Assembly (NCBI GenBank): GCA_048938855.1
Contig: JBHLLT010000011.1
Coordinates: 32,001-96,000 of the forward strand
Reading direction: 5' to 3'
DNA length: 64,000 nt
From: Promethearchaeota archaeon
GTDB lineage: Archaea; Asgardarchaeota; Lokiarchaeia; Sigyniarchaeales; SOKP01
The notes under the pieces were generated by a model. The model was not told where the DNA came from. It searched no databases and worked only from the letters and a program-made list of their open reading frames with translations. Positions 10,987 through 15,166 of this stretch are shown piece by piece; position 1 is the stretch's first letter, and each line of letters begins with the position of its first letter. A program made the position numbers and the translations under genes.

Positions 10987-11348
10987 AATTTAAATTCAAA
11001 TTTGTTTCATAATTCTTAAATTCATAAATTTAAAATATAAAAAACTTAAAACTAAACCTCGAAACTAAATTTAATGGCTTTTTAAATATTTTAAGTTTTA
11101 TAAGTTTTAAAATTTATTTTTGAATACTAAATAAAGTATAGATTTAAAAATTTTAATGAAGAAATAAGAGAAATTGGTACTTCGGTAAGTAAAAAGTCAA
11201 ATTTTACCATACTTAAAATTTTAGATTTGGGTTATTTGGATCGTATTAAAAACCTATCCAAATTTCGAAAATAAAAATATAATAAGACAAAAATTATTAT
11301 AATTATAATAATCATTATAATATCTAAAAGCAAGAAAGGTGGAGAGAT

Positions 11349-11753
11349 ATTCAATTCGGGTCTGACTTGGGAATAAATCAAGATGATATTGAAAAAATTA
11401 GTCCTCAAATTACTTTTATAACATCGAACGCAGATATTGAGGCGATTGCACTTGTATCTCAAGAAGGGTACCAAATAGCATTTAGTGCATTACCACATTA
11501 TCATGTTGATGGAGATCAATTTTGCGGACTCTCAAGTGCATTACTAATGACGGGAAGATCAACAATTCAAACATTATTTCAAGAAGATCTAAGTGAGATT
11601 ATTGTTCGAGCTCAAGATGGATATATTGTAATTACCAATGCAGGGAGATTAGTCATTGTGTGTGCTGGTACTATTATTGATACACTAATGAAGACTGTAA
11701 AGGTTATGAGAATTGCTGCTAAAAATCTTTATAAAATTTTTGAAGATCGTTAG
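11349..11753 (+). CDS. roadblock/LC7 (MglB/LAMTOR-like) domain protein
   Basis: IALVSQEG...LSEIIVRAQDGYIVITNAG roadblock pattern; start is either ATT 11349 (after SD AGGTGGAG) or TTG 11367. Confidence 0.85.
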   Translation: MQFGSDLGINQDDIEKISPQITFITSNADIEAIALVSQEGYQIAFSALPHYHVDGDQFCGLSSALLMTGRSTIQTLFQEDLSEIIVRAQDGYIVITNAGRLVIVCAGTIIDTLMKTVKVMRIAAKNLYKIFEDR

Positions 11754-11872
11754 CTTAAATTATCTTTTTTACTAATTTTAAATATTATAACAATTTGTAC
11801 CCTAAATCAATAGGTTTTTAAATAACTTACTATATTTAAAACAGAATAATAAGTCATTAATTATTTTTATTC

Positions 11873-11920
11873 ATGTCGATTCTAAGAAATATAGCGTGGC
11901 AGTGGCTTTATTGGCATTAA
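11873..11920 (+). CDS. putative Trp leader peptide MSILRNIAWQWLYWH (trpL-like)
   Basis: ATG 11873 to TAA 11920; three TGG codons in the last seven sense codons; ~150 nt upstream of trpB2. Confidence 0.75.
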   Translation: MSILRNIAWQWLYWH

Positions 11921-11972
11921 AGCCAATTGCATTTGATATTTCTTAATCTTATTTTTTCATTTTAATATTTTT
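11878..11972 (+). promoter_or_regulatory. attenuator-like hairpin plus T-tract in the trpB2 leader
   Basis: TAAGAAATAT (11883-92) pairs with ATATTTCTTA (11936-45); GCAG-TGGCTTTA (11899-910) pairs with TAAAGCCA-A-TTGC (11918-30); followed by TTATTTTTTCATTTT. Confidence 0.65.
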
Positions 11973-12071
11973 ACTTCAGAATATTAAAAACTCTTCCTAA
12001 ATGCGCGTTAATTATTTTGATTTCCAATTTATTAATGACACACATCTTAAGGTGTGAAAAAACGAATATAA

Positions 12072-13487
12072 TTGGTAACTAAAATGATAGATTACTTTAA
12101 AGGAAGAATTATATTACAGCCAAATGAAATTCCAAAAGATTGGGTAAATATATTACCGACATTACCCTCTCCTATGACGCCCTTAATTAATCCGATGGAT
12201 GGGAGACCTGCACCCCCAGAAATGGCATTTGCTATATTCCCAAAAGAGTGTGTTAAGCAAGAGTTCTCTCTAGAACCTACAATCCCCATTCCAAAAGAAT
12301 TAAGGGAAATTTTTGCAAATTCATATAGACCCAGCCCTCTACATCGGGCATTAGGTTTAGAAAAAGAGTTAGGAATAGAAGGAGAGAAAATCAAAATTTT
12401 TTATAAAAATGAATCAACATCTCCTACTGGCTCTCATAAGCCCAATACTGCCATAACACAAGCATATTATGCTAAAAAAGAGGGACTAAGTGAATTGGTT
12501 ACTGAAACAGGTGCAGGACAGTGGGGATCTGCTTTAGCTTATGGATGTTCCCTTTTTGGCCTTAAATGCACAGTATATATGGTGAGAGCAAGTTATTTCC
12601 AAAAGCCAGGGAGAAAAATTATGATGAGATGTTTTAATGCTAAAGTACATCCAAGTCCTTCAAAATTAACAGAATCTGGGAAAAAATTCCTAAATAAGGA
12701 TCAAGAACACCCCGGTAGTTTAGGAATCGCCATATCTGAAGCAATAGAACATAGTATGAGAAGTGATAAAATTAAATATTCTCTTGGAAGTGTAGTCAAT
12801 TTTGTTCTTCTACACCAGACTATTATTGGACAAGAAGTGAAAATACAATTAGCAAAAGTAGGTATTCAACATCCTGATGTAATAATAGGCTGCATGGGTG
12901 GAGGTTCCAACTTTGCAGGTCTAATGCTACCATTTGCAAAAGATAAACTAGAAGGTCAGAGTCAAGATATGGAAATAATAGGCGTTGAACCTCGGGCATG
13001 TCCCAGTGTATGCAAAGGAGAGTATAGATGGGATTTTGGGGACTCTTCAATGAAAGGGCCAATATTAAAGATGTACACATTAGGTCATAATTTCATCCCT
13101 AGCCCAATTCATGCAGGGGGATTGAGATATCATGGAATGGCTCCGATAATTTCCATATTAAATAATCACGAGATTATAAAAACTACAATGCATCATCAAA
13201 CTGAAGTAATTGACGCAGGTATTCAATTTGCTAAAGCAGAAGGTATAATTCCAGCTCCAGAAAGTGCTCATGCTATAAAAGAAACAATTGATCAAGCTCT
13301 CAAAGCTAAAGACAACAATGAAAAAAAAGTTATTTTGTTCAATCTTAGTGGTCATGGTTTCTTTGATCTGTTAGCTTACGAAAAATATATGAATGGAGAA
13401 TTAGTGGATTATGAATTGCCTACAAGTCAAATTCAAAATTCACTCAAATCAGAAGAAATGCCAAAGATTGATGAATCTCAATTTTAA
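12072..13487 (+). CDS. trpB2: tryptophan synthase beta chain 2 (TrpB-like PLP enzyme)
   Basis: SPTGSHKPNTA PLP-lysine motif, ETGAGQWG, GGGSN, HAGGLRYHG, NLSGHG; ATG 12084 is an alternative start. Confidence 0.95.
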   Translation: MVTKMIDYFKGRIILQPNEIPKDWVNILPTLPSPMTPLINPMDGRPAPPEMAFAIFPKECVKQEFSLEPTIPIPKELREIFANSYRPSPLHRALGLEKELGIEGEKIKIFYKNESTSPTGSHKPNTAITQAYYAKKEGLSELVTETGAGQWGSALAYGCSLFGLKCTVYMVRASYFQKPGRKIMMRCFNAKVHPSPSKLTESGKKFLNKDQEHPGSLGIAISEAIEHSMRSDKIKYSLGSVVNFVLLHQTIIGQEVKIQLAKVGIQHPDVIIGCMGGGSNFAGLMLPFAKDKLEGQSQDMEIIGVEPRACPSVCKGEYRWDFGDSSMKGPILKMYTLGHNFIPSPIHAGGLRYHGMAPIISILNNHEIIKTTMHHQTEVIDAGIQFAKAEGIIPAPESAHAIKETIDQALKAKDNNEKKVILFNLSGHGFFDLLAYEKYMNGELVDYELPTSQIQNSLKSEEMPKIDESQF

Positions 13488-13584: not shown

Positions 13585-14613
13585 TTGAATGTTATTTCCA
13601 TAATAATTATATGTTTCTTATACCTGTACGGGTTAATAATTTTTTATATAACTTATTTAGCAAAAAAAAAGAACGAAAAAGGAGCTTTTATAAATAACTT
13701 AACAAACGGATTAATTTTCATATCTTCAATTTCGATTAATTTAATTATCTCTAATTTATATGACTTCCCAATTAGAGAGTTTATTGATTTTCCCTTAAAT
13801 ATTTTAATGATTATTTTAATTATATTTTTTCTACCATTATTTTACATCTTCATAACTCGAGAGAAACACAGAATTAAAAAAAGTAAAAAAAATATTAATA
13901 AACTCGAGCTTCAATCTTCTACAGAACTTCCTCTTAAATATGATATATATAGAAAATTAACACATTTTGTTGTATTAGGAATTATTTTCTTTTATTTCAG
14001 TCTAGGTCTTTTATTACAAAACCTTTTCATTAGTATGGGCTGGGATATAATGATCTTTTCACAAAATTTAGTAGTCTTCTTGGTTATGATTTCTTTAATA
14101 GGTTTACTAACCGCGGATTTTGTGAGAATATTACAACCAGAGTTTTATCCATTAAAACCAGTCAATCAACTATTAAGGGAAAAGGAACTTCATATGAGGT
14201 TAGGACCTCATATTTCCATGAGTATTGGATGTTTTTCCATAATTTTACTTTACGGTATAATTCAACCAATTGGACCAGTGATAATCTGTACTTCAATGGC
14301 AATGTCTATTTTTGGAGATGCCACAGCAAATTTAGTAGGGAGGACAATTGGTCAAAAAAATATTAGAAACACTAAAAAAACATATGTAGGATTAATTGGA
14401 GGTATGATTGCAGCTTTTCTCTCTGGAATAATTGTATTATTTATATTAAGAAATTATTATAGATTTACTATTCCAGGGTTACTACTGATTCCCTTAATCG
14501 GAATGATGATCATTGGAATAATTGATTATTTGGATTTAGAGATTGATGATAATTTAACATTTAATTTTGGTGTTTCAACAATATTATTTTTTTGTTCATT
14601 TTTAATATTATAA
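13585..14613 (+). CDS. CTP-dependent polyprenol/diacylglycerol kinase family membrane protein (dolichol/phytol kinase-like)
   Basis: RKLTH, GDATANLVGRTIG...KT..G and DDNL motifs; multiple TM segments. Confidence 0.75.
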   Translation: MNVISIIIICFLYLYGLIIFYITYLAKKKNEKGAFINNLTNGLIFISSISINLIISNLYDFPIREFIDFPLNILMIILIIFFLPLFYIFITREKHRIKKSKKNINKLELQSSTELPLKYDIYRKLTHFVVLGIIFFYFSLGLLLQNLFISMGWDIMIFSQNLVVFLVMISLIGLLTADFVRILQPEFYPLKPVNQLLREKELHMRLGPHISMSIGCFSIILLYGIIQPIGPVIICTSMAMSIFGDATANLVGRTIGQKNIRNTKKTYVGLIGGMIAAFLSGIIVLFILRNYYRFTIPGLLLIPLIGMMIIGIIDYLDLEIDDNLTFNFGVSTILFFCSFLIL

Positions 14614-14653: not shown

Positions 14654-15166
14654 ATGAAAATGTTGGAAGAAAAATTAAAAATTGATAAAATATCTAAAGG
14701 AACTGTTATTGATCATATAGATGCAGGATATGCAATAACAATTCTTAATCTTACTGGTATTGATGAATCAAAAAATTTAATGACAATTGGTGTAAATGTC
14801 TTATCAAAAAAATTCAAGACAAAGGATATTATTAAAATCGAGAATGTTTTTCTGAATGAAACTCAAATGCAACAAATATCTATACTGTCACCTAATGCTA
14901 CAATTTCCCTAATTGAAAATTATAAAGTAATGGAAAAGAAAAAGGTGGAGCTTCCTAAGATCATTAAAAAATTGATATTATGTGTTAATCAAACCTGTAT
15001 AAGTAATTCGGAAAAAGAGCCTATTGACACGGAATTTCTAGTATTAGAAGAAAAACCCCTGAAAATTCAATGCGTTTATTGCGAACGTATATATAAATTA
15101 GAAGAAATTGTTTTCACTTCGAAAGAAAAAAAAGAAATGAAGGTAAAACAAAGAATTCAACTTTAA
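14654..15166 (+). CDS. pyrI: aspartate carbamoyltransferase regulatory chain
   Basis: GTVIDHI, KDIIKIE and Zn ligands CxNxxCISN / CxYCE. Confidence 0.95.
   Translation: MKMLEEKLKIDKISKGTVIDHIDAGYAITILNLTGIDESKNLMTIGVNVLSKKFKTKDIIKIENVFLNETQMQQISILSPNATISLIENYKVMEKKKVELPKIIKKLILCVNQTCISNSEKEPIDTEFLVLEEKPLKIQCVYCERIYKLEEIVFTSKEKKEMKVKQRIQL

Follow-up and report, generated by a model that had tools for sequence, protein, structure and literature searches.

The window analysed here, a 64,000-nt stretch covering contig positions 32001-96000 of a Promethearchaeota genome (3.95 Mb, 30% G+C, 97% complete), contains a 330-nt spacer between a Roadblock/LC7 gene (11367-11753) and trpB2 (12084-13487, + strand). 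The trpB2 product is a stand-alone TrpB-like PLP enzyme (NF009057, 643 bits; TIGR01415, 595 bits), and trpB2 is the candidate regulated gene of this study. A Shine-Dalgarno (SD)-like GGTAA (12074-12078, + strand) lies 5 nt before its ATG, with the GG nearly invariant in the genus alignment A1. The Roadblock/LC7-trpB2 synteny is conserved across the family. Close relatives of the genome are deposited as 'Promethearchaeota / Promethearchaeia archaeon' MAGs, including Loki_b32. The spacer DNA is unique in the genome, and a repeat or mobile element was therefore rejected as the source of the leader. A T6 run at 11767-11772, 14 nt past the Roadblock stop codon, is likely a terminator separating that gene from the trpB2 leader. 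Directly 3' of trpB2 is a 342-aa ORF (13585-14613, + strand) with no Pfam or NCBIfam match, followed by pyrI (14654-15166).

Neither TrpA (PF00290) nor IGPS/TrpC (PF00218) has a match in this 97%-complete genome, and IGPS was likewise not found in the sampled genomes of genera g1, g19 and g20. trpB2 thus stands alone as the sole tryptophan-forming gene found, where its product presumably salvages indole. The missing matches suggest tryptophan auxotrophy combined with indole salvage.

The trpB2 leader carries a short upstream ORF (uORF; 11873-11920, + strand) of 15 codons plus stop, running from an ATG at 11873 to a TAA at 11918-11920 and encoding MSILRNIAWQWLYWH. Its three TGG codons (11897-11899, 11903-11905 and 11912-11914) all lie within the last seven codons, as a first-pass annotation of this DNA had reported, and its stop codon is followed 163 nt later by the trpB2 start. 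No SD-like motif was found upstream of the uORF. TGG accounts for 1.1% of codons in the long ORFs, and 37 ATG-initiated ORFs of at most 45 aa in the 3.95-Mb genome have three TGG codons within seven; the uORF is the only one of these that is clearly intergenic. A fixed rule was defined for comparisons: an ATG start, at least two in-frame TGG codons within five codons, a stop at most four codons after the last TGG, and a position within 400 nt of the gene. Five of 1910 upstream intergenic regions in this genome match it; the trpB2 uORF alone has three Trp codons, and the other four regions precede TPR, Kae1 and hydrolase genes. An in-frame ATG together with a stop within five codons accompanies 11 of 171 intergenic TGGNNNTGG sites (6%). 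Given these genome controls, a translated ORF describes the element far better than does a chance frame or a simple repetition of UGG. Equivalent leaders with other cognate codons did not emerge from a crude scan of the genome: it returned 56 candidates, and the eight checked all precede unrelated genes.

Comparison with relatives separates the constrained parts of the uORF from the variable ones. Upstream DNA of trpB2 was collected from 26 same-genus genomes (TrpB2 78-85% identical), and in all 26 relatives first sampled an ORF with an ATG start lies at about -210 to -160 and finishes with W-Q-W-P-W-x-W-x or a closely related sequence. In these leaders the start, the reading frame, the TGG codons and the place of the stop are fixed, while the N-terminal codons are free to vary. 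This short ORF, in which 1-4 codons follow the W-x-W ending, is also present at 37 of the 45 scanned MAG loci named 'Promethearchaeota'; most other families of the order have it, as do four Asgard families elsewhere. Beyond the genus, the peptides no longer align but share the W-x-W ending (e.g. FPWAWRP, TWPWH, IAWSWRR; families f2, f3, f4, f5, f7, f8, f9, f21 and f23). Lengths range from 13 to 66 codons and the spacing to the stop is unconserved; the spacing of the Trp codons is 6, 9 or 12 nt, always a multiple of three. By the fixed rule, the uORF is present in 25/27 leaders of genus g1, 7/9 of g20 and 1/1 each of g21 and g24. At the family level, the rule is matched in 6/10 leaders of f2, with the other four just outside it, in 4/4 of f4, 2/2 of f7, 1/4 of f12 and 1/1 each of f3 and f5, as well as 1/1 each of f8, f9, f21 and f23, which belong to other classes. 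Both g19 leaders have the ORF with a TTG start. No such ORF was found, as sampled, upstream of trpB2 in g18, g22, g23, f6, f10, f13, f14, f17, f18, f20 and f24.

The distribution of the leader follows that of the tryptophan genes. Genus g18 and family f9 have a trp operon, and there the leader stands before trpD. In g18, which has IGPS, trpB2 has no leader; the leader is found instead before a small ORF followed by trpD and trpC, and it comprises an 18-codon ORF ending in GWQWPWRFE, the hairpin over the stop codon, T-tracts and the downstream RNA domain also present in the window. In the f9 genome, an ORF ending in LWRSWWWI lies 65 nt before trpD. Judged from these comparisons, the leader element is one that tracks tryptophan genes and not trpB2 as such. 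Trp-rich uORFs, whose absence from relatives the first-pass annotation had named as a refutation, are present across the order and beyond. In two g22 leaders (L053 and L055) the uORF is lost and a decayed stop-codon hairpin, the CATTGGAT spacer word and the T-tract remain, with a weak form of the 3' domain kept in L053; these leaders look like evolutionary decay of the sensor.

The RNA around the uORF is predicted to be structured beyond chance. The segment 11860-11995 folds at -29.9 kcal/mol (z = -4.45), and none of 200 shuffles folds as well. A minus-strand RNA was rejected, as its fold is poorer (z = -3.8) and the frequent G.U pairs fit the + strand only. A long hairpin (11878-11948, + strand) encloses most of the uORF and ends 3-6 nt before a T6 run. 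Both of its previously described stems were confirmed as exact reverse complements, the outer pairing 11883-11892 with 11936-11945 (10 bp) and the inner pairing 11903-11910 with 11918-11925. They differ in their conservation. The inner stem is the local form of H1, a hairpin over the uORF stop codon whose 5' arm consists of the last x-W codons and which covaries across the genus (for example A-U, G-C and G.U at one pair). The outer stem, in contrast, is specific to a lineage of three genomes (the window, L004 and L117); it is identical in all three and so carries no covariation evidence. In most genus members another helix, H0, pairs uORF codons 1-4 with the first W-Q-W-P codons; the window lineage has lost H0 and one Trp codon as well. 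The five helices of alignment A1 pair in 85% of cells, compared with 34-46% when the partner column is slid, and 14 pairs have changed on both sides, a number reached by 0 of 500 shuffles. For the leader ORF itself, the conserved features come down to the Trp codons, the reading frame and the hairpin over the stop codon. The leader matches no known Rfam family: cmscan of 11000-13000 with E-values up to 10 gave no match to Trp_leader (RF00513) or T-box (RF00230), the only hit being a chance one to BtsR1.

Other families also combine a hairpin with a U-run. In f2 and f3, the uORF stop marks the start of a covarying hairpin of 13-15 bp, which the Trp codons precede by 3-12 nt and a U4-6 run follows at a distance of 5-6 nt. 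The leaders of the GC-rich family f4 contain GC-rich hairpins and U5-6 runs. The f2 and f3 leaders represent the simplest design, and the window type has the same shape.

Downstream of the long hairpin, the T-tract noted earlier is present as a T6 run at 11952-11957, within the T-rich stretch 11948-11963. A run of at least five T residues lies exactly 31 nt past the uORF stop in 14 of 38 family leaders. The U-tract (11949-11958, + strand) is a candidate termination or pause site and is also the 5' strand of a closing helix, P1. In the consensus fold of 16 leaders (RNAalifold), 11949-11958 pairs with an A-tract at 12056-12065 (+ strand), and all 10 pairs of P1 have changed on both sides in alignment A4. 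P1 encloses three further + strand helices. P2 (H2; 11961-11988) corresponds to the second inverted repeat at 11960-11969 and 11980-11989 proposed in the first-pass annotation, and it covaries, with both-side changes in 6 of 10 pairs in A1 and 8 of 9 in A4. P3 (H3; 12006-12037) has an invariant apical TTG..TCC loop region and tolerates G.U pairs, indicating a + strand RNA. P4 (H4; 12042-12055) has a closing pair that is C-G in 13 sequences and U-A in 10, and its loop length varies among relatives. A single-stranded junction, CTC.T...TAAATG.G (11989-12005, + strand), has invariant columns in alignment A3. In A4, a 46-sequence alignment that was fitted to the model and so leans towards it, 90.7% of cells pair, against 42-54% when slid, and 27 of 33 pairs have changed on both sides. 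A covariance model of the 125-nt domain finds one match in this genome; among 71 family genomes searched, 17 have a single match each, adjoining trpB2 wherever the position of trpB2 is on record; it also matches the g18 trpD leaders. With a single copy per genome, a regulon built on further copies of the domain was rejected. Because the U-tract is also a strand of this covarying long-range helix, it may be structural rather than a terminator.

Two further features were observed close to the trpB2 start. Roughly half of the genus leaders (including L008, L010, L013, L015, L016, L019 and L030) have a second mini-ORF, an ATG plus five codons and TAA or TAG, that ends 1 nt before the trpB2 ATG. 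Another subclade and L014 have ATG-TGG-TAA (Met-Trp-stop) overlapping the SD; the window (12060-12086) has ACG in place of that ATG.

A TATA-box-like element (TTTTTAAATA; 11815-11824, + strand) provides the best promoter candidate. Across 27 same-genus leaders its TTTTTA (11815-11820) shows little or no variation, unlike the flanks, and it is the only promoter-like element kept genus-wide. The earlier candidate, TTTAAAA at 11835-11841, is kept only in the three closest genomes and gives way to this element. The word G/C + TTTTTA also occurs upstream of tRNA genes in this genome. A promoter weight matrix from tRNA genes was abandoned, since 13 tRNAs are too few; these 13 are all that ARAGORN without intron search found in 3.95 Mb, and many tRNAs of this genome are probably intron-bearing or unassembled. 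From the position of the element, we infer a transcription start site (TSS) at about 11840-11845, roughly 30 nt before the uORF. The frequent G.U pairs point to a + strand RNA under selection, which argues that 11949-12065 is transcribed as one RNA with the trpB2 5' UTR, and this covariation makes a trpB2 TSS downstream of 11948 unlikely. A second promoter within 12000-12060, with the palindrome at 12041-12056 as operator, was rejected as the main reading because the helices covary, tolerate G.U pairs and vary in loop length, and because the block precedes trpD in g18. Several leaders (L015, L016, L030, L009 and L018) contain, some 35 nt 5' of the TATA-like element, an inverted repeat of the type CTGGA-N3-TCCAG or TTGAATATTCAA, weak in the window (about 11770-11800), which may be a transcription-factor site.

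A Trp-codon leader conserved before tryptophan genes across relatives very probably serves as a tryptophan gauge read by the ribosome, a type of device that has hitherto been described in bacteria alone. We place the probability that the locus encodes a ribosome-read tryptophan sensor acting in cis at roughly 80%. In the proposed mechanism, the three Trp codons of the translated 15-codon ORF in the trpB2 mRNA 5' leader would be the sensor. When charged tRNA-Trp is scarce, a ribosome would pause on these codons, and its footprint would cover the 5' half of the long hairpin (11878-11948). The hairpin would then be blocked while RNA polymerase crosses the T6 run (11952-11957), and transcription would continue into the four-helix domain and trpB2. 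When tryptophan is plentiful, the ribosome would reach the stop codon and leave, the hairpin would close a few nucleotides short of the U-tract, and transcription would in large part end there. No antiterminator is needed in this scheme, as the ribosome itself would occlude the terminator arm; a conserved antiterminator, or a conserved alternative partner for the terminator or H1 arms, was not found in the leaders compared. The geometry is therefore unlike the classical 1-2-3-4 attenuator, as first proposed. Because a paused ribosome would cover the 5' arm of the hairpin, starvation should give read-through. Since the hairpin would be blocked by a ribosome on the stop codon as well, the model requires that the ribosome be released before about 35 nt have been transcribed.

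The output of this sensor is less certain than its input. The complete chain, with transcription termination as the output, is a model to which we give about even odds; translation of the uORF, U-tract termination and the direction of the response are all inferred from the leader. The original proposal, that ribosome stalling controls read-through into trpB2, is supported in part: its Trp-codon leader is conserved and tracks trp genes, whereas read-through at the U-tract is a putative output. A constrained fold of the window's leader agrees with the scheme: with a ribosome on the Trp codons, the 10 nt preceding the tract drop in pairing from 0.62 to 0.08. However, most genus members have no hairpin abutting the U-tract at +31, and the last 10 nt have a mean pairing of 0.27 when free, which a ribosome placed on the Trp codons changes to 0.23; a general hairpin before this tract was not found. 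In archaea, a hairpin is not generally required for termination. Within this genome, the T5 tracts at gene 3' ends show no enrichment of preceding hairpins. Archaeal RNA polymerase terminates at oligo-T, and a hairpin can enhance termination (PMC13675443, review).

With the hairpin lineage-specific, the tract doubling as a helix strand and no hairpin enrichment at gene ends, a translational or stability output remains a serious rival, although we consider it the less likely one. The same ribosome-read tryptophan sensor would then act post-transcriptionally, pausing on or release from the uORF refolding the leader, including the four-helix domain (11949-12065), and altering the stability of the mRNA or the initiation of trpB2 translation. 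In favour of this rival, the covarying 125-nt domain occurs once per genome, has its 3' end some 10 nt short of the SD and accompanies the uORF even before trpD; the U-tract forms a strand of it, and H0 pairs the uORF start with the first Trp codons in most genus members. In the single-sequence MFE of the window, the invariant TCC loop region also pairs with the SD region. This pairing is not conserved in relatives beyond CC:GG (A1), and sequestration of the SD by the loop was rejected on that ground; moreover, the freed 3' arm of H1 has no conserved alternative partner, and the leaders of f2, f3 and f4 look like plain terminators of hairpin plus U-run. A two-module riboregulator, in which the Trp-codon ORF acts in tandem with the four-helix domain as a second sensor (for example of Trp, indole or tRNA-Trp) or as a protein-binding switch, is an improbable elaboration. 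If true, it would represent the first archaeal leader-peptide attenuator together with a new riboswitch-like RNA class.

The remaining explanations dispense with a ribosome that reads tRNA charging. The uORF might be untranslated, its UGG repeats binding a Trp-activated, TRAP-like protein, or the four-helix domain might sense a ligand, protein or tRNA in the manner of a riboswitch. Most leaders do repeat the UGG triplet every 6 nt, the intervening Q and P codons are nearly invariant at the nucleotide level, the uORF has no SD, and g22 keeps a weak 3' domain without a uORF. Against this, every lineage has an in-frame ATG and an early stop, compared with 6% of random intergenic W-x-W sites, and the variable Trp-codon spacing preserves the frame. 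A TRAP leader needs (G/U)AG repeats, while those found here are UGG in a single frame; TRAP itself was rejected, as PF02081 has no match in this 97%-complete genome (the control was positive in B. subtilis), and no Rfam family, T-box included, matches. We regard this explanation as improbable too. Doubt is greater still for a TnaC-like arrest, in which the nascent W-rich peptide would sense free tryptophan and hold the ribosome at the stop, so that expression would rise with tryptophan. The W-x-W-P-W motif has a conserved Pro close to the stop, and the fixed 31 nt between stop and U-tract would put a stop-codon ribosome close behind a polymerase at the tract. The regulated genes (trpB2, trpD) are anabolic, though, peptide length and non-Trp sequence are unconserved, and the window peptide has no Pro. 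A functional Trp-rich micropeptide unrelated to regulation would account for the conservation of a small ORF but not for the conservation of its Trp codons alone, for lengths of 13-66 codons or for its constant place upstream of a trp gene on the same strand, and it is very unlikely.

Attenuation by the ribosome, which requires transcription and translation to be coupled, is a textbook mechanism of bacteria. The ribosome-read sensor proposed here resembles trpL, the enterobacterial trp leader (RF00513), and other bacterial attenuators in its short ORF with cognate codons clustered near the end, its position before biosynthetic genes of the cognate amino acid, the hairpins overlapping the ORF end, the downstream U-tract and the conservation of the regulatory codons alone. 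It differs in its archaeal (Promethearchaeota/Asgard) host and in having no sequence or covariance-model match to trpL. No 2:3 antiterminator was found in the archaeal leader, its Trp codons alternate (W-x-W) whereas those of trpL are tandem, and its uORF is followed by a stop-codon hairpin and the 125-nt four-helix domain. The proposed logic is that of E. coli pyrBI, where the translating ribosome, not an antiterminator, blocks the terminator hairpin and the 5' arm of the hairpin likewise lies in or at the end of the leader ORF. However, pyrBI senses UTP via polymerase pausing, whereas here a ribosome that pauses at Trp codons would provide the signal. B. subtilis rtpLP, with three Trp codons and control of anti-TRAP translation, offers the same readout of tRNA-Trp charging and illustrates that the output could be translational; its stop adjoins the SD of the regulated gene, while 163 nt of structured RNA intervene here. 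TnaC has a conserved W..D..P spacing to the stop and serves a catabolic operon, in contrast to the archaeal leader, which has no such spacing and targets anabolic genes.

Tryptophan-responsive control of archaeal trp genes is exemplified by TrpY of Methanothermobacter, a DNA-binding repressor acting at the promoter. The present leader would share with TrpY a tryptophan-responsive control of archaeal trp genes, but it has nothing resembling TRP boxes, and its conserved features are a reading frame and RNA helices. Full-text literature searches found no published case of archaeal leader-peptide attenuation, an absence that is not proof.

The leader could serve as a testable handle on transcription-translation coupling and regulated termination at oligo-U tracts in archaea, and on the control of indole salvage in an auxotrophic Lokiarchaeon. 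Family f2 includes closed single-contig genomes; if these are those of cultured strains, the simplest version of the system, comprising uORF, hairpin and U-tract, would be directly testable. One possible implication, if the reading is true, is that uORF-based amino-acid sensing arose before eukaryotes did.
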